Positions 1 to 48,781 of a stretch of DNA of 52,428 nucleotides are shown here, one piece after another. The notes beneath the pieces are model-generated. The model was not told where the DNA came from. It worked only from the letters and a program-made list of their open reading frames with translations, and made no database searches. The translations under genes were made by a program, and so were the position numbers. Position 1 is the stretch's first letter, and every line of letters begins with the position of its first letter. Source of the stretch: an uncultured bacterium (GTDB lineage: Bacteria > Hydrothermota > UBA3072); assembly GCA_964485935.1 (NCBI GenBank), contig CAZALG010000001.1, positions 1 through 52,428 on the forward strand, given 5' to 3'.

Positions 1-2
1 TG

Positions 3-42
3 GTTAGTCGGTTGGGCTGTTTTTTACGCCCAACGCACTAAC
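3..42. repeat. Imperfect hairpin GTTAGTcgGTTGGGC / GCCCAACgcACTAAC, same family as 5572..5620
   Basis: Arms 3..17 and 28..42 pair over 6+7 bp around a 2x2 internal mismatch, with a 10-nt loop. The arm sequence is related to the perfect hairpin at 5572..5620. Confidence 0.6.
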
Positions 43-50
43 AAACATTT

Positions 51-85
51 TGACTAGTGACTAATGACTCACGACTCGTGGCTCG
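51..85. repeat. Five tandem degenerate heptamers (TGACTAG TGACTAA TGACTCA CGACTCG TGGCTCG)
   Basis: Read directly from the sequence. The same GACTNNN word family recurs at 4627..4661 and, complemented, at 17294..17321 and about 9460..9490. Confidence 0.8.
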
Positions 86-932: not shown

Positions 933-937
933 AAAAA

Positions 938-974
938 GCAACAACGAATAGCACAAATTACACGAATATTTTTT
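938..974 (+). repeat. Intergenic repeat module M1 (gcAACAACgAATagCACAAATTACACGAATATTTTTT)
   Basis: Near-identical to 5636..5672. Related copies lie at 43672..43708 (+) and 37744..37770 (complement). Confidence 0.8.
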
Positions 975-1093
975 CTGCCGTCAGCTGTCGGCTTCTCAAT
1001 ACTAAATCCTATATCCTAAATATTGCCACTGATTAACACGGATTTTTTTGTCATTTTTAACTCGAAACTCTAAACTCGAAACTCTAAATCACA
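975..1093. repeat. Heptad-phased low-complexity tract, including (AACTCGA AACTCTA)x2 at 1059..1086
   Basis: Reads in a single 7-nt phase: ctgccgt cagctgt cggcttc tcaatac taaatcc tatatcc taaatat ... aactcga aactcta aactcga aactcta. It also contains GCCACTGATTAACACGGAT (1025..1043), which is shared with 5704..5722. Confidence 0.7.
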
Positions 1094-1096
1094 GAT

Positions 1097-1423
1097 TTAC
1101 ACTGATTTTTTGCCTATTTTACTTATTGCAAATCCCAGTAATGCCCCCAAAACTAATGTCATTATTGCAATCGGAATTAAACTCATAGGTTCTTTCCAGG
1201 CGATTAAAATCGCGACGGGAGTTAACAGTAAAAAAGAGATTAGAATTCCTTTCAAAATACTATTAATTCTTAATTCACTTGTTGAAATAAAAAACCCCGC
1301 AATTATCCACATTGCCAGTGCAGACAAATTCGCGTCCCATGTTAATTTCTGTAAAACCATTGGTATTACATCGATAATCCCCGCGATTAAACCCAGAACT
1401 AAACCTGCAACAATCTTATTCAC
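1097..1423 (-). CDS. Small integral membrane protein (3-4 predicted TM helices), hypothetical
   Basis: 108-aa hydrophobic ORF. Its GTG start is preceded by GGAGG, which overlaps the stop codon of the upstream flavoprotein gene, suggesting translational coupling. Confidence 0.55.
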   Translation of the reverse strand: MNKIVAGLVLGLIAGIIDVIPMVLQKLTWDANLSALAMWIIAGFFISTSELRINSILKGILISFLLLTPVAILIAWKEPMSLIPIAIMTLVLGALLGFAISKIGKKSV

Positions 1424-4411: not shown

Positions 4412-4626
4412 ATATTCAAAGAATATAGTACATCTGTACTTTTTTGACTTTTTATGCCCGCAAGGGTTCTTATAGATAACCACATGTGTAAAATCAATTC
4501 CTCCATACAAGGAAATATAATATTATAATGCAAGAGAACAAGTCCTACGGAGAACACAAAGCAAGTAAGAATCCAAGAGCCGGAAGCTGAGAATTCCATC
4601 GCCACCTCAATCCAAAATCCATTTTT

Positions 4627-4661
4627 CGACTGAAGACTGGTGACTCGAGACTGATGACTCG
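4627..4661. repeat. Five tandem degenerate heptamers (CGACTGA AGACTGG TGACTCG AGACTGA TGACTCG)
   Basis: Read directly from the sequence. Same GACT word family as 51..85. Confidence 0.8.
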
Positions 4662-4780
4662 TGAAGATGGAACTCCCGAGCTTTTTGTTAGGTCGTATTA
4701 ATAAAGAAGAAAAAAGAGAATTTAATAATTGTAGAGAAAAAATTGTAAAAAAATTTTAGTTTAAAAAAAAGGAGGTCAAA

Positions 4781-5557: not shown

Positions 5558-5571
5558 TAAACTGTTGGTCA

Positions 5572-5620
5572 GTTAGTGGGTTGGTCTGTTAGTCTGTAAA
5601 AAACACACCAACCCACTAAC
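5572..5620. repeat. Perfect 14-bp stem hairpin GTTAGTGGGTTGGT / ACCAACCCACTAAC with a 21-nt loop
   Basis: Arms at 5572..5585 and 5607..5620. It lies in a convergent intergenic region and has no adjacent U-tract. Related to 3..42. Confidence 0.75.
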
Positions 5621-5635
5621 ACACTAACTAAATTA

Positions 5636-5672
5636 GTAACAACAAATCACACAAATTACACGAATATTTTTT
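5636..5672 (+). repeat. Intergenic repeat module M1 (gtAACAACAAATCACACAAATTACACGAATATTTTTT)
   Basis: Near-identical to 938..974. It is followed at 5704..5722 by GCCACGGATTAACAGGATC, as in the first copy. Confidence 0.8.
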
Positions 5673-7937: not shown

Positions 7938-8062
7938 AACTTTTCTATTCTAGACAGTGTTAAGGTTCAGAATTATCTTTTTCATGAAAAGAAGTTAATT
8001 TGAAAGGGAGTATTGTCAAGAACGCCCCCACTCCCCTTTTTTGACTGGTGACTTAATTATAT

Positions 8063-9094: not shown

Positions 9095-9122
9095 ATGATA
9101 TTGTGTCGTTATCAAAAGTCAA
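9095..9122 (-). promoter_or_regulatory. Sigma70-like promoter TTGACT-16-TATCAT for the micro-ORF/plsC/ACP unit
   Basis: Complement of 9117..9122 is TTGACT, preceded by CCC. Complement of 9095..9100 is TATCAT. Confidence 0.45.
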
Positions 9123-9201: not shown

Positions 9202-9317
9202 GGCTAAATCCTAACTCCTAAATCCAAAATCCTAAAAAGGAACGCAGATAGACGCAGATTATTCCTGTCGAAAGCCCAATGTCCTAAGTCCAATGTCAAA
9301 AATTCAAAAATCAAGAC
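9202..9317. repeat. Short-period degenerate tandem tracts (TCCTAAA-type x5, a 10-nt ACGCAGAT repeat x2, CCAATGT/CCTAAGT/CAAAAAT-type x6)
   Basis: ggctaaa tcctaac tcctaaa tccaaaa tcctaaa at 9202..9236. aCGCAGATagaCGCAGATt at 9242..9260. ccaatgt cctaagt ccaatgt caaaaat tcaaaaa tcaagac at 9276..9317. Confidence 0.75.
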
Positions 9318-9566
9318 CTGACCCCTCTATAGACATTTTAATATTAAAATTCGATCTATTTTTTGAGTTGACATTTCAGCATCTGGCAATTCCCAACCTC
9401 CCATCCCAATAAATTTTTCCCAAACAACTTGATTTTATTACGATATTCATACGGTGCGTAGCACCGAGTCATGAGTCAATAGTCAAAAATTCAAAAAAGA
9501 AGACCTGACCCTTCTATATGACCCTTCTATACTTCTATACTCTTAAAGCTACACTATAACAGCCAT

Positions 9567-13821: not shown

Positions 13822-14168
13822 ATTAGCCTCCTGTTTTTCCTTAATTTGTTAAAATAGGAACAAATTGGATTTTTAGATAATTCTCAGGGTTAAAGTATTT
13901 TAGCGGTTTCAAAGAAAAATGACAATTATTTTCCCTGGTTAATGTTTTTAGTATGTTTTGAGTTTTGACAGGAAAGGTGTTCAGTTCAGTCATGTTAATA
14001 TTTCTTTTCTTTCTTAAATTTGATTCTTTTCTTTAAAATATTTATAAAATACATCATATTAAACTGCTTATAAAAAGTTAGGAAATATAGCAAATAAGTC
14101 AAGGGGAAAGGGTGTCGTGAGTCAAAAAAAACGACCGATGGCGGCAGGCGGGTAATACACCTCAGTAT

Positions 14169-17100
14169 TTAAAAACCAACCCCGTAGAGAACCAGCGATG
14201 CAAACATATCATGGTATATATTCCTATCGGTATTCGCCCAACCAATTCCAAAATTTAAGAAACTTGTATCAAGATAAAATCCTATTGAAGGCGCGTAATG
14301 GATCGAATTTTCCTCAAACAGAGAAGAAAATGAATCCGATGCACCCGCCACATACGCAGAACCAATAAAATGTATATTCGCCCTTACTCCCAGAACCTGC
14401 ATTTCGACAATAGTCAACCTTGCAGAACCGCCAACTTTAAACATATATTCCTCGATGAACTCATTACGGCTGTAACCAGGAAGGTCTTCATAATCATGCA
14501 GCCTAAGCTGGTAACTCCCGATAGGCGTAATCCCTCCCATACTGTATTTCTGTACAAAAGGAGCTGCCTCGCTGCATCCGCTAAAATATAGCTCCCCTGT
14601 CAGTACAGTCTTGAGCTTATTCTGGAATCTGAATCCTTTTGCGTAAATGCCTTTTAATTTTGCTTTATTCCATAACCTTTCTTCTAAATCAATAGCGGCT
14701 TCAATGCTAATTTTAGTCCCCGATGAAGGAAAAACGTACCGGTCTAGGTTATCACATTGCATCTTAAAAAATCCAATGATAGGACGAGGAAGTAGAGAAT
14801 CATTAAGATATGCCCTATAATAAGACTCTACACCGATACTAAAAGCGAAATCTTTCCTATAAACGGGATAAGACACTTTGCCGAAAAGATATTCATCATA
14901 TTGCATATCATAAAGAGTCGTATCCCTAAGACTCGGATATCTTAACCTTCTGTTACCAAGAGATAAATCGGGCAATAATGACCAAAAAGAAATCCGCAGA
15001 GGAGAACATTTGTTAACGCCTATATTGTAATTATGTCCTTGGATTAACTCTTTGGCTGATTTCAAAGGAAAGTTCTGCCAAAAATTTACATAGAAAGAAC
15101 GATCTCCGAACCCTCTGATGCTCTTTGTTCGGAGCTCAGCAAACAAATTTAGCCCTTCGTCTTTATCCAAAGATAATACCGGGAATTCCAGAGTATGTCC
15201 AGTTTTAGGCCTAACTCTAATACTTAACAAATCTTTCTCCATCCCTTCAACAGAAATCGTTTTAAGCTGATATTTATTATATATCTCTTTGTTCTTCTTT
15301 AAAATTTTCCTCGGAGACAATGGGGGTTTGAATTCCTGCTGTATTGCTTTCTTCATGTCATTATCTTCCTGAAATATTTTAACTCCCTCAAGGTATTTCC
15401 CTCTGTCCCCATGAACAAAGAGCATATCTTTATCCTCAAAAGATGAAAATGCGGCACCGGAAACCAAAGGACCGATATAACCCCTTTCCACATATTCTTT
15501 TTCGACAAGTTCTTTTATTTCATAAAAGTTTAATTTTCTTTTTCCTTTCCGTATAAAACTGTATACTTCTCCGGCAACGAGGGAATCATCATAATCATTG
15601 CCCCCCATTATCATCATCACATTAAGCGGCTCCAAATACTTATCCTTTTCCGTTAAAAAGAACTCGACTTCCAATCCTTCCGTCTCTTTATCTACTCTCG
15701 CTCCTACGTTTTTATAATCACCCGTATTATAAATATTCCTGAGAGCATAACAAACATCATTTCTTTCAATAATACTGCCAACCTTTAACTTCATAGCCCT
15801 TTTTATAGCTCTATTCACCTCATTTTCCAGGGTATCATTGTCTTTTACATGAAATATTTTTATTGAAGACACCTTAAAAACCTCTCTAGAGATATCGAGA
15901 CTATCGATACCATCTTCCTTTTCTGCAATCCCTCTTTTTATGCTATCTATTTGATTCTTTGCCGCATCGTAACCTGTTTTAATCAATTCTCCCAGTTTCT
16001 TTTTATTAAAATCAAAACCTCCTTGGACATCTATATCAATTCGTCCGTCAGCATTGTCCCAGCTATTCCACACATGAAATTCCCTGGCAAGCGAAGAAGT
16101 TTTCCCAAGAACGCCGATACCGAGCAATCCGGACATTACCTCTCCAGTCTCGATCGGCTTATTCCTGGCACCCCTTAATTTAGAAGGGTAAGAGGCAATT
16201 ACGAATATATCTTCACCTTTCTCTTCATCATGTATAGTAATAATAGAATCCGGTTTTCTTATTGGATCGAAATCCTGCAGGAAAGCATCGACGGGGAGGT
16301 TATCAAGAATCCCGCCGTCAACATACTGCACATTCTTTATTATCATCGGCTCGAAAGCCATAGGAAAAGACCCGCTAGCTCTAAGAACAGTAGAAAGAGT
16401 TCCATGTTTTTTTAATGTAGATTTTACATTATTTAAATCTGTCAGCACAGCTCCAAACGGATACTTTAATTTAGAAAAATCAAAACCCGCTCTGTAATCC
16501 GCCTGCAGCGTCTTATCCGCTATTTCATCAGTAAATTTCTGGGCAATTCTTATCCCCGTTCCGGGTTTGTATAAAATAAAAGGACGTTTCCAGGATAAAC
16601 CAACTTCCATAGCAGGAGGTCTTGGCTTATTTCGAATACGTTCCCATATTGGCGTATACATTCTGGGCTGATGGTCATAAAAAAAAGTCTCCCAATCAAT
16701 ATCTTCTTTTACAACCCATTCCAAACTATCTGGAGAATAACCGCTTACGTACAGTCCTCCGATTATCGAACCCATACTGGTACCTGATACACCATCTATC
16801 GGAATATAATTTTCCTCAAGAATCCTCAAAACCCCAATATGAGCAACACCCCTAACTATACCTCCGGCAAGAGCTAACCCCACTTTTACTTTTCTCTGCA
16901 ATCCGGGAACTTCCTCCCACTTTCCACTTTCTATCTTCTGTTCGGCAGAAAAATTTTCCGAACAAAGACTTTTCTCCCAATTTAATGTGGTATACTTATC
17001 ATCGGATTTCAGCCTAAACCAAACCGGAAACTCATCCGAATATAGAGGCAACGAAAATATTATCATTAAAAATAAACACATAACCTTATATAAATTAGAG

Positions 17101-17180
17101 TAGCAACGGTTTTCGATGAATCTTCTTTTTGTCTTTGAAATAATACTTATTTGAAACACTTTATTTTTTCGCGCGGACAT
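14169..17180 (-). CDS. Patatin-like phospholipase fused to a POTRA domain and an Omp85-type C-terminal beta-barrel (PlpD / type Vd secretion-like)
   Basis: GGIVRGVAHIGV (oxyanion GGxR), GTSMGS (GxSxG nucleophile) and VDGGILDN (catalytic Asp). A POTRA-like segment lies around SIKIFHVKDND...YNTGDYKNVGARV. The beta-rich C-terminus ends in ...LVLYGVGF. The exact start is uncertain, since MCLFLMIIFSLPLYS is an alternative signal. Confidence 0.7.
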   Translation of the reverse strand: MSARKNKVFQISIISKTKRRFIENRCYSNLYKVMCLFLMIIFSLPLYSDEFPVWFRLKSDDKYTTLNWEKSLCSENFSAEQKIESGKWEEVPGLQRKVKVGLALAGGIVRGVAHIGVLRILEENYIPIDGVSGTSMGSIIGGLYVSGYSPDSLEWVVKEDIDWETFFYDHQPRMYTPIWERIRNKPRPPAMEVGLSWKRPFILYKPGTGIRIAQKFTDEIADKTLQADYRAGFDFSKLKYPFGAVLTDLNNVKSTLKKHGTLSTVLRASGSFPMAFEPMIIKNVQYVDGGILDNLPVDAFLQDFDPIRKPDSIITIHDEEKGEDIFVIASYPSKLRGARNKPIETGEVMSGLLGIGVLGKTSSLAREFHVWNSWDNADGRIDIDVQGGFDFNKKKLGELIKTGYDAAKNQIDSIKRGIAEKEDGIDSLDISREVFKVSSIKIFHVKDNDTLENEVNRAIKRAMKLKVGSIIERNDVCYALRNIYNTGDYKNVGARVDKETEGLEVEFFLTEKDKYLEPLNVMMIMGGNDYDDSLVAGEVYSFIRKGKRKLNFYEIKELVEKEYVERGYIGPLVSGAAFSSFEDKDMLFVHGDRGKYLEGVKIFQEDNDMKKAIQQEFKPPLSPRKILKKNKEIYNKYQLKTISVEGMEKDLLSIRVRPKTGHTLEFPVLSLDKDEGLNLFAELRTKSIRGFGDRSFYVNFWQNFPLKSAKELIQGHNYNIGVNKCSPLRISFWSLLPDLSLGNRRLRYPSLRDTTLYDMQYDEYLFGKVSYPVYRKDFAFSIGVESYYRAYLNDSLLPRPIIGFFKMQCDNLDRYVFPSSGTKISIEAAIDLEERLWNKAKLKGIYAKGFRFQNKLKTVLTGELYFSGCSEAAPFVQKYSMGGITPIGSYQLRLHDYEDLPGYSRNEFIEEYMFKVGGSARLTIVEMQVLGVRANIHFIGSAYVAGASDSFSSLFEENSIHYAPSIGFYLDTSFLNFGIGWANTDRNIYHDMFASLVLYGVGF

Positions 17181-17293
17181 TATTTTCCCTCCCTTTTAAT
17201 TTTTTATAGTACTATTATATAAAAATATAGAATATATTTGTAAAATTTAGTAATATTTACTATTTTGTCAAGAGGGCGTGTAGCTCCGAACCA

Positions 17294-17431
17294 CTAGTCA
17301 CGAGTCATCAGTCGCCAGTTAAAAATTAGGATTTAAGATTTGGGGGTTAGGATTTGGATATTTAGTTCGTTGTTCCTGGTTCACAGTTCGTTGTTTTTAC
17401 GGTCTGCAGTCTGCGGTATTCCGTCTTTCTT
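17294..17431. repeat. About 20 consecutive degenerate heptamers in successive word families (NNAGTCA x4; TNGGATT-type x5; NNNGTTC x5; CTGCNGT-type x3)
   Basis: ctagtca cgagtca tcagtcg ccagtta at 17294..17321. From 17327: taggatt taagatt tgggggt taggatt tggatat ttagttc gttgttc ctggttc acagttc gttgttt ttacggt ctgcagt ctgcggt attccgt. Confidence 0.8.
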
Positions 17432-17509
17432 TCTAACAGACCAATATTCCAAAACCTTTGTACTATAAGGATAAATGTCAAGTAATATTTTCTATTATTA
17501 AAAAACATC

Positions 17510-17538
17510 TTGACTAAAAACAGGAAAATGCTTATATT
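17510..17538 (+). promoter_or_regulatory. Sigma70-like promoter TTGACT-17-TATATT upstream of the Lys-rich micro-ORF
   Basis: TTGACT at 17510..17515 and TATATT at 17533..17538, about 97 nt upstream of ATG 17636. Confidence 0.45.
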
Positions 17539-17635
17539 TCAGTAGGCGTAGGTTATTATAGAGAGATTTTCTTCAAAGGGGTTGTCGGCTTTATTATTTT
17601 TAAAATTTAGCCATACTCTAAAAAAGGAGGGTAAT

Positions 17636-17722
17636 ATGGCATGTAAGAAAAAAGCCGCGTCTAAGAAAGCAAAAAGCAAGGCTAAACCCAAGAAGAAAAA
17701 AACTACGAAGAAGAAAAAATAA
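17636..17722 (+). CDS. 28-aa lysine-rich peptide MACKKKAASKKAKSKAKPKKKKTTKKKK (not in the ORF track)
   Basis: Strong SD AAGGAGG (17624..17630) 5 nt before the ATG, with its own promoter at 17510..17538. It sits isolated in a 770-bp intergenic region. Confidence 0.45.
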   Translation: MACKKKAASKKAKSKAKPKKKKTTKKKK

Positions 17723-17954
17723 GGTTTTCTGATTTCTAGTTTTAGTTTGTGTAGTGATTAAAAAAAGTGCTCACTTGAGTTCAATGTATTTTTTTGTTTT
17801 TTGGTAGTTGTGATAGGATTCTAACTTCTGAATTCCTTCTTGCTTTGTGTGAGGATAATTTTTGTGGTGGGGGTTTTAAAGCAACACCTTTCCCTCTGTG
17901 TTCTCTGTGTGTTTAGTATTTCTCTGTGCGCTCTGTGGTAAATATCAGCTGTTG

Positions 17955-19961
17955 CTATTTAATTAAAGTCATTTTCTTTGTTTCAGCAAAACGATTACCA
18001 ACCTGTAATACATAGAAATAAATACCACTTGATAAGTTTTCTGCATTGAAATTAACAGTATATTCTCCGGCTTCCTGAAATTCGTTTACTAATGTTTGAA
18101 TTTCTTGACCAAGCATATTATAGATTTTTAAAGAAACAAAATCTGATTGCCGCGTTGAGTATTTAACTGTGGTCGATAGATTAAAAGGATTCGGATAATT
18201 CTGTAACAATACAAAATTATCAAAACCGGCTGAAACGCCTCCTGTTTGAACTTGTTTAAGAATCCAATTATCGGGGTCGAACTCAAGATTGCTTATAGGC
18301 TTTGTTAGGGAGAGGTCAAATGTTTGCGTTTCCTGATCGTTCCAGACAGTGATTAACGTATCCCCTTCTCCCTCAAAATTGAATTTAAGTTGAATCGGCA
18401 TCTCAAATACCTGTCGTCGTCCTAAACTTGATTGTGTTTGATTTATTTGAACACTTGTTTCGAATGTTGCAGGATTTTGATAATAACTATATTCATAAAT
18501 AGGAAAATATTCGTCATATAACCATTGATCAAAAAAGAAGGTAAGGTTCATACCACTTACACTTTCGCAAATCGCTTTAAAATCTTCGGTTGTTGCTTCA
18601 GCGTACATAAGATCAGGATGGTTTGCATACTGGTGTAGACATTCGAAAAACAGAGAGTCTCCTAATACTTCTCGAAGCATATGCAGTGTCCAGGCGCCTT
18701 TATAATATATGATAGTGATAAAAATATTAAAAGGATCAGAGATATCTTGCAGGTATAGAGTTCCGTCTCCAAAATATTCAAAGAAGTCCATTTTACTTTT
18801 ATATTCTTCAATCCCGTTCGTATGTTCTTGCCACAATGCTTCGCAATATGTGGCAAATCCTTCATTCAGCCATCCATGATGCCAATCTTTACACGTGACC
18901 ATACAACCAAACCATAAATGGGCGGTTTCATGTACAGCGGTACCGAACCAGTCTATGGATATATTATTCATAATAATATTGGTTTGGTTTTCAATTGCAG
19001 AGTAAATCGGCCCGATTTCGGTCATACCGTATTTTTCGTTTCTAAACGGATATGCGCCGAATTTGCTTGAGAAAAAATTCAACACATCAGGTATCAGTTT
19101 AATAGACCCTTGCTGGGCATCATAAAAAGTTTCTTGAAAGACCCAATAATTCAGCGGATAACTTTCCCCAAAATCTCCTTCGTAGATATTTTGTACTTCT
19201 ATATAATTTGAAATTGCAACCATAACATAATAGGGTGTTATCGGATATCGGTGTCTCCATCGGAATGTATTCTTACCTCTATAAGAGACAACATCTTGTA
19301 ACAGACCGTTGGATGTTGCTGTTAATGGAATACTGTTTATAGTTGTATCGGGAATGGTTATATCGATATACACGGAATCGGGTTTATCCCCCGGTCCGTC
19401 TTTACAAGGCCACCAATAATAAGCTAAATACGGTGTTGATAAGTTTGCAATAACCGGTTCATCATTTCCATGTTCTCCATAGATCAACCCTTTATTGTAA
19501 TATGGGCCTTCGGCAATGGGTGGAATTCCTCTATAAAATATTTTTATTTCGGCCGATTCATCTGCGTTATAGACTTTGTCCAGGGTAATATTAATGGAAT
19601 CATTAGAAAATGAGAAACCGGTAGAGTTTCCAATGATGCTGTCTATGGAGAAAGAATGATGTAAATTGAGGGTGATGGATTGAACACTGTCTTCTGTTAT
19701 TTCAAACCGGCATAATACACTTCCGCTTATATATGGTGAAGAAATATTGATTTCGACATCAAGATAATAAAAAAGAACATCAAAAAGGGAATCAATATTA
19801 AAAGATTCATAACGTTGAATATATTCTATCCAGTTTTGTTGTTCGATCTTATAATTATCCAATAAAATAGTAGAATTTTGAGCGGCGGATAGATTTATCC
19901 ATGAAGTGTTTGCAATAAAGAGAAGCACCACAAACAGATTGAATTTTTGTTTTTTAAACAT
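17955..19961 (-). CDS. M1-family zinc metallopeptidase (aminopeptidase N-like) with a T9SS C-terminal sorting domain
   Basis: HETAHLWFG-X18-WLNEGFATY (HEXXH-X18-E), with an upstream SAIEN (GAMEN-like) motif. C-terminal LLQNYPNPFNLSTTVKYS...LKIYNMLGQEI...SGIYFYVL. The ATG at 19961 gives a signal-like MFKKQKFNLFVVLLFIA, although the ORF extends to 20003. Confidence 0.75.
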   Translation of the reverse strand: MFKKQKFNLFVVLLFIANTSWINLSAAQNSTILLDNYKIEQQNWIEYIQRYESFNIDSLFDVLFYYLDVEINISSPYISGSVLCRFEITEDSVQSITLNLHHSFSIDSIIGNSTGFSFSNDSINITLDKVYNADESAEIKIFYRGIPPIAEGPYYNKGLIYGEHGNDEPVIANLSTPYLAYYWWPCKDGPGDKPDSVYIDITIPDTTINSIPLTATSNGLLQDVVSYRGKNTFRWRHRYPITPYYVMVAISNYIEVQNIYEGDFGESYPLNYWVFQETFYDAQQGSIKLIPDVLNFFSSKFGAYPFRNEKYGMTEIGPIYSAIENQTNIIMNNISIDWFGTAVHETAHLWFGCMVTCKDWHHGWLNEGFATYCEALWQEHTNGIEEYKSKMDFFEYFGDGTLYLQDISDPFNIFITIIYYKGAWTLHMLREVLGDSLFFECLHQYANHPDLMYAEATTEDFKAICESVSGMNLTFFFDQWLYDEYFPIYEYSYYQNPATFETSVQINQTQSSLGRRQVFEMPIQLKFNFEGEGDTLITVWNDQETQTFDLSLTKPISNLEFDPDNWILKQVQTGGVSAGFDNFVLLQNYPNPFNLSTTVKYSTRQSDFVSLKIYNMLGQEIQTLVNEFQEAGEYTVNFNAENLSSGIYFYVLQVGNRFAETKKMTLIK

Positions 19962-20026: not shown

Positions 20027-23000
20027 CTATTTCACTAAAATCATTTTCTTTGTCTGGGAAAAATCATTTGCTTCGATTTTATAGAAATAAATCCCGCCCG
20101 CGAGACTCCCGGCATTAAAATCAACCGAATGATAGCCGGCTTCCTTCCTCTCATCTACAAGAACGACAACTTTTTGACCGGATATATTATACAGATTTAT
20201 ACGAACTTGAGCCGCCTTTTTTAATCCATACTGAATATGAGAAACCGCATTAAACGGATTAGGATAATTTTGACTGAGAAAATAATTTGAAGGAATGTCG
20301 CTGGGTTCTTCCACCCCTGTTATTGGTTCTCTAATTTCTAAAGCGCTTAATTTCGCGTTGTCGGTTACACTGATAAAATCGATATTCAATTCTCCGTTGG
20401 TTATACTTACAGGCATGACAACGTCGTACGCTGTGTTTTTATCGGTACGGAACAGGAGGTCTAAATCCTGGATAACCTGTTCTCCTTCCATCTCAACATC
20501 AAATATACGACTTCCCGGATTATCCTGATATATTTCGGCAAATTTGAATACCACATCATAGGAGCCGTTCGCAAGAGGAATCGCTTAGCTAAAATCACCA
20601 TAACGTTCACTCTGGTAAAGTGTATCATCTGCGGTACCGCCGATAGCAGTGGTTACAGAATAGGTAGAACCTCCGGAAAGCCATCCCGAAGATTCGTCAT
20701 TCATATACTCTATACCGCTTGTGGAAGATAAATAAGTGTCGCCTCCGGCATTTAAGGCGTGAATTACCTCTCCGTTTCCACCACCACCAGTAGTAACGAC
20801 TATTTCAGTGCCGGGGTCGGAAATATTTCCTGCGTTATATGAACGAACCCGGTAAGTGTAAGCTGTGGACTTTAATAGACCTGTTTCCAAATAAAATGTA
20901 TCGGTTGTAGCGCCGACTGTTCGGAAAACTCCGTCTATATCTACATCCACATAATACCCGAGTACATCCTCTTCTACAGCATTCCAGGATAGAAGGATTT
21001 GACTGGAATTTAAAGCATTGCCCTCTAAATTTTCGGGCGGATCGGGGACACTCAGACCCGGTTTAGGATCTCCTTCTATCCGGATAGTAATGCCTGCAGA
21101 AGGTATTGTCCCTGACCAATCTATTTTCAGCTGAGCAAGGTCTCCGCTTCCCGTGCGCAGGTAGTCAGTGCTAACTCCATTTACTCTTACAAAATCTATC
21201 GCATCCAGTGAATCACTGTATAAATCCCAAACATAAATAGCCGAAACATCCACTTCTTCATCCGGCGTGAAAACGATTTCTTGATTTTGGTAAGATTCAC
21301 CATAAGTGTTGTAACTCACAGTAGCGTAACCTCCAGGTGTAATTATAAGAGCATCCTGCAACTCGTGATTTAAAGAATCAAAGAGCATAGGTTCCAACCA
21401 TAGCTCACCCGAATATTCGTTGCGATGATATCCCGCAATATTGTAGTAATTGCGCCATAGAACAGGAATACTTATATATTGATAATATCCGCTCGCGCTT
21501 GTTGCAATCCACGTCGGAGAGGGAACCTCCGAAGGAATGCCAAGCTCCTGATCAAATACACGATTTCTATCGAGATAGTTACGCTCATACATATCTTTCT
21601 GCAGAGCCCACCACATACTAAACCTGCCTGCTTGCAGGGAATACCCTCCCAGGTGTCCGACAAGATACGGCTGCCACTCCGAATAGGAACCGCCGGGCAA
21701 TCCCATACCTCGATTCAAAGGGTCGTAATAATTGACGATTGTGTTATAAAGACCGTTTAATTTTTGTTTCTCCCAGAAGGGATCCATCTTTAGATAGTTA
21801 GCAATCCACGGACCACCGAGAACGCTTTCGCAGTAACTTCCCGTCGGATAGGTGTTATCCAGCCACCTGCTTTCAAAATTCATCGCAGCGGTATCTAAAG
21901 CAGCCTCGTAAAGACTATCTATATCTACTTCTCCCATAATTTCTGCTAAATAAGTCATAATTTGATATGCCACGACAGAAAGGCCCGTATTGTATGCCTG
22001 TGAGTTACCGCCCGCGTCATAGGTGCTCAGAGAATTTTCGAAAGTGTAGGGATAAGTAGAGCTGCCATACTCATTGACCTGGTCGAGAACGCGCTGTCCC
22101 GCGTTTTTTACATAATCCCAAAAATAGGAGAGTTTATCCTCATCGGCAGTGGCGATAAAGGCTTCATAAACGGAAATAATAAATCCGCAGTTCAAATCGA
22201 CCCACTCATATATTGGTCTGTAATCGGCATGTTCCGTATCGTCCCAATCCACATAATTGAAATTTGTTCCTAAATCGTGATGGATTTGACCGGTATAGTT
22301 ATCGACATGCTGAGTTCGAGCCCACCATTTCAACTCCTGCCAGGCGAGCTCCGGGTTAATCATCGTATAAATTTGCCTTGCATGCCACATCTGGTCCATG
22401 GTACCCTCCGGACTCCACATGCCTTCAGTGTGGCAGTAACGGCCGTCCTGAAAATATACACTGTTATTGACGAGATTTACCGTAGAGTTAAGAGTCTGAT
22501 CGACGAGCCACTCCGGAAGATTGGAACTCCGCATACGATTTACCAGTTCATCCGATTTATCTTGGAAAGCATCAAAATTACTGAGGGCTGAAACAGATAC
22601 CTCTTTAGCATTATTCCATATATTGGTATATTGATAATGGTCCAGTTCGTCCACTTGATACCATGACAAAACAAAACGCATTCTTCTTGTTTCACCTGAG
22701 GCTAAAGAAATTCTTAAAGCAAGGCGGTTTGTCGTACCGGAAAGACTATTGTCGCATAGCCCGTCGGTAAAAAAACCGCTGTCATTTCCATAGCTCAAAT
22801 CACCGGTGCCATCAGGAAAGTCACCGATAAGACAGAGTTCAAGAGAATCACCATTTGCTACAAATCCAGTATCCGTAATAGCTGTTGGTGTAACAGGTGT
22901 ACTAATTTGAAAAGCCAGAGCGCACTCGACCGCGCTGCTTTCTAAATTCTCAATCGTGAATTCAAACATCGCGCAGGGGTGACACATCATCGAAACGGAG

Positions 23001-23374
23001 TCGGGGTAATAGGGCATATAGGCTGTCAACTCCACTGCTACATCATTTAACTCGCCAAAATTCACCCAATGTAAAGGAAAAATAGCGTCATCATCCACCC
23101 GTCCGCTGTTCTGTAGGGCAGTTAATAAATCATCCGTTAATATTGAATCTACTCTTTGGGTGAATAATTGAAATTGCGTTTCAGATAAGGGATCATAATC
23201 TTCGTCTCGAGTGGGTGTGCGAAAATTCGCAGCAAATGTTCCACTGCTTGCAGCGTACTTCACAGCTCCCGTACCGACGCCACCAAGAGGGAGTCCCGTA
23301 GTTCCGTCCGTTTTTCCAAATAAATAAACACAAAAAAGTAAAAGCAGGACAGAAATTCTTTTTAATACATTCAT
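20027..23374 (-). pseudogene. GH116-like (DUF608) glycosidase + FN3 + malectin + T9SS CTD reading frame interrupted by one in-frame TAA (20585..20587)
   Basis: ORFs 20585..23374 and 20027..20554 are in the same frame. The upstream ORF ends ...DDTLYQSERYGDFS*. The frame continues AIPLANGSYDVVFKFAEIY, which is the second half of a malectin-type domain, and the stop sits where Tyr (TAY) is expected. N-terminal LPLGGVGTGAVK is GH116-N-like. The FN3 segment is around PPENLEGNALNSSQILLSW...YTYRVRSYN. The CTD reads LSQNYPNPFNAVSHIQY...SLAGGIYFYKI. Confidence 0.6.
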
Positions 23375-28605: not shown

Positions 28606-28669
28606 TACAGTTGTTAGGGTGCAGTCATCATTTCTTAAAATAAAAGTAAAAGTTTAATCTGACTGTAAA

Positions 28670-28832
28670 TTAAATATCAAAAATTAAAAATCAAAATTAC
28701 ATATTAAAATGTAAATATATTTTTTGCCCAACAAAGGAAGTTAACTTTATATGCTTGGTTCGTTATTTTTTGTTTTTCTTATTTTTGAACTTTTATTTGT
28801 AATTTTCCATTTTGATATTTGATTTTTACATT
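28670..28832 (+). repeat. ~162-bp AT-rich intergenic repeat element, copy 1
   Basis: Left end TTAAATATCAAAAATTAAAAATCAAAATTACATATTAAAATGTAAA (28670..28715). Right end TTTTCCATTTTGATATTTGATTTTTACATT (28803..28832). Both ends are near-identical to copy 2 at 37670..37831 and the total length is the same. The ends contain mutually complementary words (AAATATCAAAA / TTTTGATATTT). Confidence 0.8.
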
Positions 28833-28910
28833 TTGCCATTTAACCACCCCGTGTGCTGTCGGGCAAAATTGGTTTTTAGGTTTATAGTTGTAGTATCGTT
28901 TTTTCAGCCC

Positions 28911-37592: not shown

Positions 37593-37669
37593 TTTAAAAC
37601 CCTCGACCAAATTTTAGGTTATTTGCATAAAAACATCTCATTCAATTTTACCTATAGTTTTCAAGGAAT

Positions 37670-37831
37670 TTAAATATCAAAAATCAAAAAATAAAATGAC
37701 ATATTAAAATGCAAAATTATTCCGCCCCCTAGCCTCAAGAGCTAAAAACATATTCGTGCTATTTGTTGTTTTTTTTCCCATCTTTTAATTTTGCTTTGTA
37801 TTTTTCCATTTTGATATTTGATCTTTACATT
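37670..37831 (+). repeat. ~162-bp AT-rich intergenic repeat element, copy 2
   Basis: TTAAATATCAAAAATCAAAAAATAAAATGACATATTAAAATGCAAA (37670..37715) ... TTTTCCATTTTGATATTTGATCTTTACATT (37802..37831). The interior contains the complement of module M1 (37744..37770). The right end abuts the metG stop codon. Confidence 0.8.
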
Positions 37832-37832
37832 A

Positions 37833-39827
37833 CTATGAGACTTTTGACCCTGCGGGAACATCTTCATCCGGGGTGATAATTGAAATTTTGTCGCCGTCAC
37901 TCGCAGCAAGAAGCATACCTTCCGATTTGATTCCTCTTATTGTTGCGGGTTCCAGATTTGTTATAACCACTATTTTTTTATTCAGTAACTGTTCGGGGGT
38001 ATATTGCTTTTTTACTCCAGCTACGAGTGTACGTCTCTCTCCTGTGTTAACGGTGAGTTTGTAGAGTTTGTCTGCGCCCTCTACATCTTCAACTTTTTCT
38101 ATTACCCCCACTTTCAAACCCATCTGGGTAAAATCATCTATTGTGACATGAGCCATATTCAACCTCCTCAATTGTTTTTCTATATAATCGTCTTCAATTC
38201 TCTTGAAAAGCGGTTCGATTTTTCCTATTTTGTGACCAAAAGGCACTTCTAATTCTTTTAGTTGGTCCCATTCTTTTTCTTTAAGTTTCAACAATGAGAA
38301 AACTTTGTTTGCGCTGAAAGGTACGAAAAGTTTTCCAATTGTACCCAAGACATGGGTTAAGTGAGAACAGAGATAAATAGTAGTAGCCATCCTCTCCAAA
38401 TCTTTTTTTCTGCTTTCCCAGGGTTTCATTTGATCGTAATACCTGTTCCCCGTTGTGCTGATTTTCATCCACAATCTTATAGCTTGTCTGAAATTAAATG
38501 TTGAAAGAGAATCGTCTATTTTGTCTATAATGGAGTTGACTTCTGATAGCATTTCCTTATCTTCTTCTGACAAATTCTGTGGTTTGGGAATCATACTTTC
38601 ATTATATTTGTCAATAAATTTTAGCGTCCTATTTACGAAATTCCCGAAATTGTTTATAAGTTCCTGGTTATTTCGTTCTTGGAATTCTTTCCACTTAAAT
38701 TCCGAATCCCTTGTTTCAGGCATTATACTGCATAAATAGTATCTAAGAAAATCAGGTTCAAAATTTTCCAGGTATTCATGCAGCCAGATAGCCCAATTTC
38801 TGCTCGTGGAAATTTGCCTTCCTTCGAGATTCAAATATTCATTTGCCGGTATTTCATCCGGCAGAGTGAATTCTTCTGTACCCATGATGATGGCAGGCCA
38901 TATTATACCGTGAAATACGATATTGTCCTTTCCTATAAAGTGTATCAAAGTTGTATCCGGATCCTGCCAATAGTCTTTCCATCTGTCTGGTTGCCCTATT
39001 TTTTCTGCCCATTCAATTGTCGAGGAAATGTATCCGAGAGGTGCATCAAACCAGACATAAAGGACTTTATTTTCCGGAGCATCATCGAGAGGGACAGGTA
39101 TTCCCCACCCCAGATCTCTCGTGATTGGTCGGGGGCGTAACCCTTCTTTCAGCCAGCCCTTAAGATAACTTTTTACCGTTTTTCTCCATTTCTTCTTTTC
39201 TATCCACTTTTCTAATTTGCCTTGAAATTTATCGAGCAGAAGGTACCAGTGTTTGGTTTCCTTCTTTATCGGTTTGGCTCCGCATAATTTACACCTGGGA
39301 TTTTTTAACTGATCTGCTTCTATCCAACTTCCACATGAATCACAGGAATCCCCTCTTGCTTCTTCGAAATCACAGTATGGACAAGTTCCTTCCACGTATC
39401 GATCGGGAAGGAATTTTTTGCAATTTTCACAGTAGAATTCCTTACTTGTTTTTGCTTCTATGTAACCTTTTTCGTATAATTCGAGGAAAACTCGTTGTGA
39501 TAAATCATGATGTATTTTTCTTGAAGTTCCCGAAAAATTATCAAATTCAACCCCTAATTTTTCTAGAGCCTCATTTATAATTTTATGGTAACGTTCTACC
39601 AGATCCTTGGGTGAAATTCCTTCTTTTTCAGCAGAGATAGTTATTGGAACACCGTTTTCGTCGGTACCACAAATGTAAATTACATCTTTATTTTTTTTTC
39701 TTAAGAAACGGGTATATATATCGGCTGGAAGATATACACCGGCAAGGTGCCCGATATGTATTGGACCATTTGCGTAAGGCAGGGCACCTGTTACTATTAT
39801 TTTCCTTTTTTCTTTACTCTGATCCAA
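37833..39827 (-). CDS. metG: Methionine--tRNA ligase with C-terminal tRNA-binding (Trbp111/EMAP-like) domain
   Basis: PYANGPIHIGHLAG (HIGH), Zn knuckles CPYCD...CDSCG and CKLCG, and a KMSKS-equivalent ISTSRN. C-terminal GLKVGVIEKVEDVEGADKLYKLTV...NLEPATIRGIKSEGMLLAA. TTG start. Confidence 0.9.
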   Translation of the reverse strand: MDQSKEKRKIIVTGALPYANGPIHIGHLAGVYLPADIYTRFLRKKNKDVIYICGTDENGVPITISAEKEGISPKDLVERYHKIINEALEKLGVEFDNFSGTSRKIHHDLSQRVFLELYEKGYIEAKTSKEFYCENCKKFLPDRYVEGTCPYCDFEEARGDSCDSCGSWIEADQLKNPRCKLCGAKPIKKETKHWYLLLDKFQGKLEKWIEKKKWRKTVKSYLKGWLKEGLRPRPITRDLGWGIPVPLDDAPENKVLYVWFDAPLGYISSTIEWAEKIGQPDRWKDYWQDPDTTLIHFIGKDNIVFHGIIWPAIIMGTEEFTLPDEIPANEYLNLEGRQISTSRNWAIWLHEYLENFEPDFLRYYLCSIMPETRDSEFKWKEFQERNNQELINNFGNFVNRTLKFIDKYNESMIPKPQNLSEEDKEMLSEVNSIIDKIDDSLSTFNFRQAIRLWMKISTTGNRYYDQMKPWESRKKDLERMATTIYLCSHLTHVLGTIGKLFVPFSANKVFSLLKLKEKEWDQLKELEVPFGHKIGKIEPLFKRIEDDYIEKQLRRLNMAHVTIDDFTQMGLKVGVIEKVEDVEGADKLYKLTVNTGERRTLVAGVKKQYTPEQLLNKKIVVITNLEPATIRGIKSEGMLLAASDGDKISIITPDEDVPAGSKVS

Positions 39828-42595: not shown

Positions 42596-42726
42596 CAGTT
42601 TACCCCAGTAGTTTGTTATTGGTTTTTAGTGAATCTTCCGGAATTTTGCTCTTTTCTGTAAAAAACAATGATATTCTTTTTTTGAAGACCAAAAAGATGC
42701 CGAGAAGAGTAATTATAAAACTTTTT

Positions 42727-43671: not shown

Positions 43672-43787
43672 AAACAACAAATCACACAAATAGCACAAAT
43701 ATGTTTTTAGTTTTTAAGGTGAGAGGTGGTATGATTTTACATTTTACTCTGTCATTTTGCTTTTTAAATTTTGATATTTAATTTAAA
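43672..43787 (-). repeat. Partial (~115 bp), inverted copy 3 of the ~162-bp element, including module M1
   Basis: 43672..43787 aligns along its length with the reverse complement of 37670..37770. The shared blocks are AACAACAAAT..AGCACaAATATGTTTTTAG, ATTTTaCATTTTA, TGTCATTTT and TTTTGATATTTAA. Confidence 0.7.
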
Positions 43788-43861
43788 TTCTGGCACTATT
43801 TTTAGGATTTTTTCTTTCACTAAACCCCAAATTTCAGATATCAGAATATAAGATATTTGTA

Positions 43862-48509: not shown

Positions 48510-48781
48510 GGGTTTTTTGCCTTTTCTGTAAAAAGATTGAACCACAAAGTACGCAAAGAGCACAAAGATTTTGTTTTGTTAACTATATATTTCACAGGGT
48601 ATCAATTTCTTTTGCAAAGCTGAAGCTTTACTCTACATTTAAAAGATAGAGGTAGGGAAGAGTTCAAAAACAGAATAATTAGTTGGGCATGGGGTGGCTT
48701 TGTGTTCTTCGTGGTCTCTGTGGTTAAAACTATGTGTTAGCGGTTTTGCCGAGACGAACTCTTTTAAGTAAAAGTTTTTTT

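Follow-up and report, generated by a model that had tools for sequence, protein, structure and literature searches.

Tandem heptanucleotides were reportedly described in cyanobacteria by Mazel in 1990 as short tandemly repeated repetitive (STRR) sequences, and long simple-sequence heptamer repeats of bacteria are said to have been treated by Mrazek in 2007. The units of STRR1-3 are CCCCART, TTKGTCA and CAACAGT. We analyzed a 52,428 nt stretch of DNA from an uncultured bacterium (Hydrothermota, UBA3072; contig CAZALG010000001.1; hereafter the window) in which the spacers carry tracts of short tandem words, mainly heptamers, with most attention to the tract at 17294-17431 (the focus tract). These tracts carry a thirty-year-old unexplained phenomenon, lineage-specific intergenic tandem heptamers, into an uncultured candidate phylum. 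Where PMC4679880 cites Mrazek 2007, heptamers are given as the commonest long simple-sequence tandem repeats in bacteria, with polymerase slippage proposed as their origin. The same paper reports TAACTGA repeats, of unknown function, from Beggiatoaceae and Cyanobacteria as well as from five Bacteroidetes. Those of Microcystis and Elizabethkingia stand among other heptamers, with 7-nt indels between strains, and MacGregor proposed an RNA-level role for the repeats (PMC4679880). The heptamers GGGAATC of Xanthomonas and GGGGA(T/C)T of Nostoc are also intergenic, lying between the same gene pairs in relatives with varying length (PMC4692102).

The window has a GC content of about 36-37%, and the named relatives of its methionyl-tRNA synthetase (MetRS) and patatin-like proteins come only from candidate division WOR-3 or TA06. 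A previous sequence-only reading had held that its spacers are built from short-period words in both orientations, and all words which it quoted were found again (17294-17417, 51-85, 975-1093, 4627-4661, 9202-9317, 17894-17931, 28812-28839 and 48543-48569). In the pooled spacers of at least 100 nt (3991 nt) the lag-7 match was 0.364 compared with 0.286 in 200 dinucleotide shuffles (z=11.8) and 0.263 in coding DNA, which confirmed the anticipated period-7 excess; lag 8 (z=6.3) and lag 14 (z=4.3) were also raised. The focus tract alone gave 0.573 against 0.277 (z=7.7), a value reached by none of 1000 shuffles. Eleven spacers exceed 100 nt; of 13 spacers scored individually nine had a lag-7 z of at least 2.6 and four showed little signal. 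Strict arrays, defined by at least 75% match across 3 units, of period 7 occupied 6.3% of spacer DNA (0.3% in shuffles) and those of periods 7-10 combined 13.0% (0.6% in shuffles, maximum 2.8%), so that "built from" was an overstatement for what amounts to about one eighth of the spacer DNA. Their reported absence from coding sequence was borne out, with strict arrays covering just 0.4-0.8% there (0.4% at period 7). For period 9 the pooled autocorrelation gave no excess (z ~1), and only local 9-nt arrays exceeded the shuffles (2.2% vs 0.1%). Period-7 arrays were also detected by Tandem Repeats Finder. The arrays consist of 2-5 units with 67-92% match, and arrays of different families abut.

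The dinucleotide shuffles ruled out chance or low complexity as a source of the signal, as did 55 control loci from other bacteria, in which lag-7 z was mostly below 3 in absolute value; some of these negative controls were Pseudomonas, Bacteroidota and similar loci picked up by generic patatin patterns. An assembly artefact was likewise ruled out. Two relatives were each compared as an NCBI metagenome-assembled genome (MAG) and a Logan assembly, and these independent assemblies were identical (L001 and L002 across 12,313 nt, L004 and L005 across 15,816 nt), while a Logan contig from another run (L095) matched the window at 99.5% identity over 6,084 nt with no indel. Because independent assemblies reproduce the tracts we regard them as genuine. 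Both ends of L095 fall within copies of a repeated element of about 170 nt. Arrays of this kind break short-read assemblies, inflate spacers and risk being taken for regulatory motifs.

Like STRR and other long simple-sequence heptamers, the window tracts have 7-nt tandem units in several families per genome and are intergenic, dispersed and lineage-specific; unit number varies, and slippage is the origin proposed for STRR as well. The window arrays differ in being short and degenerate and in abutting in fixed orders, and the long near-perfect single-unit arrays by which STRR are recognized are not the case here. In 23 kb of spacer DNA from the clade, exact STRR-type unit classes accounted for 0-3 arrays. 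One-mismatch resemblances were common (AAATCCC to AATCCCC, GACTGAT to AACTGAT), but identity with STRR or TAACTGA units was rejected, the resemblance being one of a single mismatch only and possibly due to chance. WOR-3 is a new host phylum for repeats of the STRR kind.

The TAACTGA repeats share with the window the occurrence as direct heptamer repeats in spacers, in 2-6 copies per set, and a patchy, unexplained phyletic distribution (PMC4679880). The unit is different (GACTNNN), and the composite of T-run and GACT array is specific to the clade of the window. In 'Maribeggiatoa' BOGUAY the repeats lie a few nt from start codons, whereas the window arrays lie upstream of -35 boxes or after stops; three arrays belonged to the exact TAACTGA class, and the GACT arrays were upstream of -35 boxes rather than at start codons. 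The Xanthomonas and Nostoc heptamers resemble the window tracts in being intergenic, sometimes in inverted pairs, between the same genes and variable in length and sequence (PMC4692102), but they are G-rich, quadruplex-forming and often long perfect arrays, whereas the GGATTT/GGGGGT tract of the window has few G-runs. The sequence-only reading had recognized no described repeat class, which was wrong for the heptamer part given the repeats of Cyanobacteria, Beggiatoaceae, Bacteroidetes and Xanthomonas (PMC4679880, PMC4692102). We class the heptamer mosaic with this described kind, as a new member or variant from a new phylum.

On the minus strand the focus tract reads CGCAGAC TGCAGAC, (NNNGAAC)x5, (AAATCCN)x5, TTTTT and then AACTGGC GACTGAT GACTCGT GACTAGT. 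The GACT array ends 22 nt upstream of a TTGACA-16-TAAATT promoter, the gene of which encodes a 1003-aa patatin-like protein, and a TTGACT-17-TATATT promoter in the opposite direction lies 79 nt beyond the other end. With the patatin promoter on one side and a promoter for a small open reading frame (ORF) on the other, the focus tract thus stands between two divergent promoters. The features of this spacer are:

17244-17271, minus strand: predicted sigma-70-type promoter of the patatin-like gene, TTGACA-16-TAAATT, conserved in 5 relatives
17294-17321, minus strand: GACTNNN array, AACTGGC GACTGAT GACTCGT GACTAGT (plus strand CTAGTCA/CGAGTCA/TCAGTCG/CCAGTTA), with a T-run ahead of it on the minus strand (17322-17326) and homologous arrays at 4628-4662 and 52-79
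17327-17361, minus strand: AAATCCN array of 5 units (plus strand TAGGATT variants), 87% similar to 9206-9235
17362-17396, minus strand: AACGAAC array of 5 units (plus strand NNAGTTC); the ortholog in L001 has only 2 units, and L001 20668-20702 repeats the array unit by unit
17397-17431, minus strand: GCAGACN pair and flank, CGCAGAC TGCAGAC (plus strand CTGCAGT CTGCGGT at 17404-17417)
17510-17538, plus strand: divergent predicted promoter TTGACT-17-TATATT for a 28-aa lysine-rich ORF at 17637-17722, 93-96% conserved with L001
17890-17945, minus strand: CACAGAG array with 9-10-nt spacing, 4 units (CTCTGTG at 17894, 17903, 17922 and 17931), led by TTTACCAC and beginning 17 nt after the stop of an M1-peptidase gene; a member of the cross-phylum family F1 described below

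No single-strand structure was predicted for the focus tract on either strand (fold z ~0), and no terminator-like sites, and no U-tract terminators, were found in 17100-18000. The statement that the tracts are not clean hairpins therefore holds for the focus tract; elsewhere it fails, for there are hairpins at 1-50 (z=-4.9) and 5558-5635 (z=-6.6) and long inverted pairs with word-built arms at 28671-28719/28780-28828, 37664-37715/37783-37834 and 48534-48567/48698-48731.

The small ORF beyond the focus tract (MACKKKAASKKAKSKAKPKKKKTTKKKK) has its own consensus promoter and a leader of about 90 nt (window 17510-17722, plus strand; L001 9480-9700). This region is 93-96% identical between the two species, with four-fold sites only 62-82% identical, and the sole difference within the ORF is an in-frame 15-nt indel. 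It matched nothing in NCBIfam or Rfam.

The module set of the window comprises GACTNNN, AAATCCN, AACGAAC, GCAGACN and AAATATC (7 nt), CACRGAG (9 nt), CRCNGAT (10 nt) and the inverted-arm element of about 170 nt, with arrays of the form (CACRGAG)3, (CGCAGATGAA)3 or (GACTNNN)4. Comparison of the window spacers with one another by blastn matched 4609-4661 to 17287-17340 (a composite of AAATCC, T-run and GACT), 9206-9235 to 17326-17355 and 9281-9331 to 9468-9518. A module of CAC array and T-run at 937-974 recurred at 5635-5672, 43673-43707, 37745-37776 and 48530-48575, and the element of about 170 nt at 28667-28832, with inverted arms of 49-52 nt, recurred at 37667-37831 and 43686-43813. Eight window modules gave 86 blastn matches at non-orthologous places in 216 kb of clade DNA and a single, AT-rich match in 1.32 Mb of control DNA (80 other bacterial loci). 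Degenerate arrays matched unit by unit: window 17364-17397 reads TTAGTTC GTTGTTC CTGGTTC ACAGTTC GTTGTT, and L001 20669-20702 reads TTAGTTC CTTGTTC CTGGTTC GTAGTTC TTAGTT. On this evidence the tracts are shown to be dispersed homologous modules, which occur in recurrent orders and both orientations and are confined to non-coding DNA.

A purely local mutational by-product, in which slippage in place is followed by decay and family resemblance comes from chance or base composition, would fit the heptamer bias of bacterial slippage (in the part of PMC4679880 citing Mrazek 2007) and the young perfect duplications of the window. Two such duplications are exact (a 14-nt unit twice at 1059-1088, a 13-nt unit twice at 9506-9531), which shows local duplication to be ongoing. 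However, degenerate arrays share their unit order at unrelated loci and across genomes, which excludes independent decay in place as the main origin; the modules are essentially missing from the control DNA, and composite orders recur. We consider this explanation very improbable. The sequence-only reading had offered decayed slippage minisatellites as one possibility, of which the slippage part stands, arrays being resized by the 13-14-nt duplications and by the difference of about three units between orthologs, and the part assuming independent local decay does not.

The modules follow a partial grammar. A T-run precedes all ten clearly intergenic GACT arrays of the clade, and in about six of the ten TTGAC follows within 45 nt, often as CCCTTGAC and often behind a mini-hairpin of 5-6 bp such as CGGTGCTACGCACCG. 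AAATCC arrays stand ahead of a T-run at no fewer than four unrelated sites, and the recurrent order is T-run, (AAATCC)n, T5, (GACTNNN)n, GC-rich mini-hairpin and CCCTTGAC -35 box. In four species arrays on the GTG strand (YTTYGTG x3, GGC, A-run) lie directly upstream of the -35 box of a 500-aa gene, and in L001 they lie upstream of other genes too. CAC-type arrays in the spacers of tandem genes were co-oriented with the genes in 10 cases and anti-oriented in 11, in agreement with the claim that both orientations occur, and no strand-specific rule for the arrays holds across the clade.

Relatives were ranked by the identity of their MetRS to that of the window; a metagenome scan for further relatives yielded 2 loci. 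Lag-7 z was 10 for the window, 9.3 for L001 (same genome as the locus with 94% MetRS identity) and 7.0 for L004. At 90% identity it was 5.9 (L087), at 85% it was 2.6, with 9-nt arrays dominant, and at 80% it was 6.1 (L089), and it was ~1 in L090-L092 (74%, 69% and 54%). This series limits the trait to a shallow WOR-3 subclade of roughly 80% MetRS identity or more.

Orthologous spacers of the clade were compared, as had been suggested, and revealed block turnover and changes of unit number beside retained promoters. MetRS and UbiA genes overlap without a spacer in L086, L090 and L091, and are separated by 222-253 nt with an inverted-arm element in the window and L087. The Era promoter is identical in four species, but unrelated modules lie upstream of its -35 box; L086 and L087 have 74-84 nt there, the window 286 nt and L088 699 nt. 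At the patatin-like gene five genomes could be aligned over promoter and leader, but only the window and L001 over the arrays; upstream of this promoter L004 has a short remnant of AACGAAG, AAATC and TAACTGA with the order kept, and L094 has CAC arrays instead. From these alignments modules are shown to have been gained, lost, resized or swapped wholesale between species while neighboring promoters stayed fixed. Repeat evolution can be followed unusually well in the window and its graded relatives: ready-made degenerate arrays are dispersed, resized by units and swapped wholesale. The 699 nt of L088 (5554-6252), which correspond to 74 nt in L086, contain at least five YTCTGTG arrays in the same orientation alternating with G-rich boxes (GGTGGGGGGATGGG) and A-runs.

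We lean, with moderate confidence, to the view that a repertoire of small extragenic repeat modules was amplified in this lineage and that the tracts are its copies, selfish or slippage-driven and partly co-opted. Slipped-strand or tandem duplication would generate the arrays and alter the unit number, and recombination, or mobilization in trans in the manner of REP, BIME or miniature inverted-repeat transposable elements (MITEs), would spread modules between spacers. Most copies would be selfish or neutral filler, those fixed beside promoters or stops possibly being co-opted as promoter-upstream DNA or 3'-end hairpins, and the two 9-10-nt families may be local members of a wider cross-phylum class of three-word elements adjacent to stop codons and bracketed by TTTAAC/GTTAAA.

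The BIME/REP, BOX and REPIN elements (PMC3116915 and general background) are comparable as small extragenic modules in variable number and order, often just after stop codons, with inverted doublets and presence/absence polymorphism. REPs, however, are single imperfect palindromes mobilized by a REP-associated tyrosine transposase (RAYT), and the window has arrays of tandem words, no identified RAYT and neither sequence similarity nor an Rfam match to such elements. Terminal inverted repeats and a short non-coding core, as in MITEs and REPINs, are present and the L086 site is empty; no target-site duplication was visible at the MetRS-UbiA or Era junctions.

Several points weigh against our preferred account. 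No transposase, RAYT or integrase was found among the genes of the window, the only place where transposases were looked for, and with no target-site duplications either, the mobilization mechanism is not supported. The focus tract is better conserved than neutral filler should be: its sequences in the window and L001 agree at about 90%, with 7 mismatches in 81 aligned columns and one indel of about 20 nt (three units) in the AACGAAC array, compared with 62-63% identity at four-fold sites of the flanking genes and 61-82% at those in the rest of the genome. Constraint would be one explanation, the other being a recent recombination tract that also takes in the small-ORF region (93-96% identical). 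Upstream of the patatin promoter L004 retains part of the word-family order, and its four-fold sites are near saturation (0.42). Over the 55 nt that bear the array at the 500-aa gene, identity is 53-71%, compared with 70-88% over the core promoter and down to 35-58% at four-fold sites, which argues for soft constraint at most. Finally, the 9-10-nt families keep one primary sequence across phyla at 38-74% GC, which argues for recognition by a conserved factor over pure drift.

The same conservation above the four-fold-site rate would be expected of cis-regulatory operator arrays, each word family being the site of a cooperative DNA-binding protein that tunes or insulates promoters. Heptad operators of ribbon-helix-helix proteins are known for omega of inc18 plasmids and of pSM19035 (WATCACW heptads), ParG (ACTC boxes) and MetJ (8-bp metboxes), and these resemble the window arrays as contiguous 7-8-bp units, direct or inverted, upstream of promoters. 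The fixed places upstream of -35 boxes, the ACTC at 7-nt spacing in 1059-1088, the use of both orientations as expected of double-stranded DNA sites and the lack of single-strand structure in the focus tract agree with such a role. Known operators of this type, however, are few per replicon and have a known binder, whereas the clade has dozens of sites in nearly every long spacer, beside functionally unrelated genes and also after stops. In relatives the families upstream of one promoter are swapped while the promoter stays, the units are very degenerate and no candidate binding protein was identified. We think operator arrays rather unlikely as the general explanation.

A 12-14-nt palindrome, AATTTAATGTACGT ... 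ACGTACATTAAATT, surrounds a TTGAC -35 box at L001 15655-15715, L004 21085-21125 and L094 6750-6790 and is followed by ACACTATGAATATC and then a T-run and GACT array; by its sequence it looks like an operator around the promoter.

Two families extend beyond the clade and provide the more interesting lead, worth follow-up. F1 is the CACRGAG family, and F2 is the family of ACGCAGAT (9242 and 9252) with the pattern (CGCAGATNNN)x3. The exact 18-mer ACCACAGAGCGCACAGAG of the CTCTGTG tract was present in 10 IMG/VR contigs (54-68% GC), almost all of which carry a third unit, and the pattern CCACRGAGNNCACRGAGNNCACRGAG in at least 120 IMG/VR stretches; with about 41 bits specified, well under one chance match would be expected in a collection whose size is not given. 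The F1 consensus is purine-rich sequence, TTTAAC, then CACRGAG GA CACRGAG RR CACRGAG. For F2 there were 50 IMG/VR stretches, led by TTTAAC and often forming a tight palindrome closed by GTTAAA. Together the two families span WOR-3, Calditrichota, Bacteroidota, Gemmatimonadota and Cyanobacteria, and they are present on well over 150 phage contigs with 38-69% GC. Among the carriers are a Calditrichaceae MAG (L006), a Bacteroidales prophage, plasmids of Gemmatirosa kalamazoonensis (nested pairs in DNA of 74% GC), a plasmid of Bacteroides finegoldii, where the element takes up a whole convergent spacer between the two stops, and a plasmid of Nostoc sp. C057; these three cultured carriers make the cross-phylum question testable. 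Rfam gave no match on 10 loci with clean CAC pairs, string searches of the published literature for the CAC words found nothing relevant, and no match to the CAC pair was found in a phage GenBank collection. The composite of T-run and GACT had no IMG/VR match.

On the word strand an ORF stop lies within 20 nt ahead of 66 of 155 F1 arrays, compared with 25 of 155 on the opposite strand (p=4e-7), and of 26 of 64 F2 arrays compared with 6 of 64 (p=7e-5). The ORFs concerned include two capsid proteins, a portal protein and a primase-helicase. A partner arm within 250 nt was found for 24 of 155 F1 arrays (15%) and 30 of 64 F2 arrays (47%).

This strand bias in the phage contigs (41-43% vs 9-16%), with capsid and portal genes among those concerned, favors RNA-level elements, that is, transcribed 5' or 3' UTR (untranslated region) platforms for an RNA-binding protein or the ribosome or, when paired, 3' stabilizer or terminator hairpins. 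Paired arms fold stably, CACGGAGGA units contain a Shine-Dalgarno-like GGAGG, and MacGregor made a like proposal for the TAACTGA repeats (PMC4679880). In the window, however, the focus heptamer tract lies upstream of both flanking promoters and its spacer has no U-tract terminators; CAC arrays of the WOR-3 clade are equally frequent in both orientations, and few F1 arrays have a partner arm. As an explanation of the tracts in general we find an RNA-level function improbable.

The paired 9-10-nt elements could also be integron attC-like recombination sites or relics. Their consensus ends RTTTAAC ... GTTAAAY fit RYYYAAC ... GTTRRRY, they lie immediately 3' of ORFs, the pairs total about 60-200 nt, and L161 has three pairs in the same orientation about 1 kb apart. 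Against this, most F1 arrays are single arms, the window has no integrase, and the elements are scattered in phage structural modules rather than in cassette arrays; the stem sequence is conserved across phyla, unlike that of attC, and the end motif is possibly just a stop codon with palindrome extension. We regard an attC origin as hardly credible.

That F1 and F2 keep almost one sequence in genomes of 36-74% GC and in many phages is difficult to account for unless a conserved reader recognizes them or they belong to a very promiscuous mobile element. The TTTAAC/GTTAAA-bracketed (CACRGAG nn)x3 and (CGCAGAT nnn)x3 might form an undescribed cross-phylum class, adjacent to stop codons and with a conserved reader, of which the WOR-3 heptamers would be a lineage-specific expansion; the factor would be, for example, a recombinase of the kind that reads attC, or one coupled to the end of transcription or translation. 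We hold this to be doubtful. An autonomous element between distant CAC arms (L125, L179) was considered and rejected, as the intervening genes are ordinary phage genes with no transposon.

In the Bacteroidales prophage L121 (1182-1633, IMG/VR) a CAC/GTG inverted pair encloses three tandem units of about 130 nt, each starting CACAGAGTCTCGCAGAG, a higher-order repeat made from the same words. A group II intron domain (RF00029, 53.6 bits) at L124 6733-6807, in an IMG/VR contig bearing a CAC pair, is probably unrelated. AAATCCY x3 was found in 47 IMG/VR contigs. Most of these have a long perfect array at or close to the end of the contig (L226, L248, L255, L269 and others, including giant-virus MAGs), and such arrays may be terminal repeats or assembly break points.

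The remaining tracts of the window are:

1-85, plus strand: hairpin with heptamer-word arms (1-50), T-run, four GACTNNN units (52-79), small hairpin and a -35 box at 100
937-1110, plus strand: mosaic of CAC array and T-run (937-976), 3-4 AAATCCT units (995-1022), CCACTGAT/CACGGAT and T-run (1037-1062), four AACTCNA units (1057-1089) and CACAGAT/CACTGAT and T-run (1088-1110)
4609-4662, plus strand: two AATCC units, T-run and five GACTNNN units, in the same order as the focus tract
5562-5672, plus strand: stable hairpin with GTTAGTN/GTTGGTN-word arms (5562-5630), then the module of CAC array and T-run (5635-5672)
8037-8056, plus strand: T-run, then GACTGGT GACTTAA
9203-9331, plus strand: five AAATCCT units (9203-9237), two copies of ACGCAGAT at 10-nt spacing (9242-9261) and a 51-nt module (9281-9331), which has a second copy at 9468-9518
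9464-9518, minus strand: T-run, three GACTNNN units and the CGGTGCTACGCACCG mini-hairpin, overlapping the second copy of the 51-nt module
14097-14133, minus strand: T-run, GACTCAC GACACCC, then CCCCTTGACT (-35 box)
28667-28841, plus strand: element of about 175 nt with 49-nt inverted arms built of AAATATC/AAAAATC heptamers
37667-37834, plus strand: copy 2 of the inverted-arm element of about 170 nt (73% identity over 167 nt), at the MetRS-UbiA junction
43686-43813, minus strand: partial copy 3 of the element of about 170 nt with a module of CAC array, missing in the orthologous spacer of L086 and L087
48534-48731, no strand assigned: inverted CAC-type 9-nt arrays (48534-48567 and 48698-48731) on either side of a 130-nt core; GATTGAAC leads the left arm and GTTAAAAC closes the right

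A GTG start at 57 was listed for the ORF 57-932, upstream of a predicted TTGACA-17-TACAAT promoter at 100-128. The true start is probably the in-frame ATG near 138, and the GACT array at 52-79 would therefore be non-coding.

Other known elements were considered and rejected. A CRISPR array was excluded, as the sequence-only reading had also concluded, since the units are 7-10 nt and contiguous and not 23-50-nt repeats with unique spacers. Intrinsic terminators were rejected on the absence of sites in 17100-18000, the unstructured focus tract and word-armed hairpins that lack a 3' T-run. Rho utilization sites were suggested by the C-over-G skew but seem not to fit, since the words contain few YC dimers and are used in either orientation. 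As to DnaA boxes, TTAACCACA is one mismatch from TTATCCACA, but the units that follow share CACA only; telomere-like repeats were dismissed because AAATCCC is no rotation of CCCTAAA. No tRNA was found in the window, and no Rfam 15 covariance model matched it at gathering score; the sole Rfam match on 17100-18000 (E=0.7) was taken as chance. We found no published paper on WOR-3 repeats.

Type IX secretion system (T9SS) C-terminal sorting domains were found on proteins of the window. The GH116-fn3-malectin-T9SS gene at 20027-23374 (minus strand) is broken into ORFs 20585-23374 and 20027-20554, its L001 counterpart being a single intact ORF of 1114 aa; a pseudogene, a frameshift or a sequencing error would each account for the split. 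The Era-M23 spacer (window 42596-42726 and orthologs) is exactly 131 nt in four species, carries no word arrays and may contain a conserved leader or regulatory RNA. In many sigma-70-like promoters, among them those with -35 boxes at 9122, 14102, 28911, 43610 and 48509, CCC immediately precedes the -35 box (CCCTTGAC). Its reverse complement, GTCAAGGG, recurs in spacers, and the motif may be an extended -35 element of the lineage.

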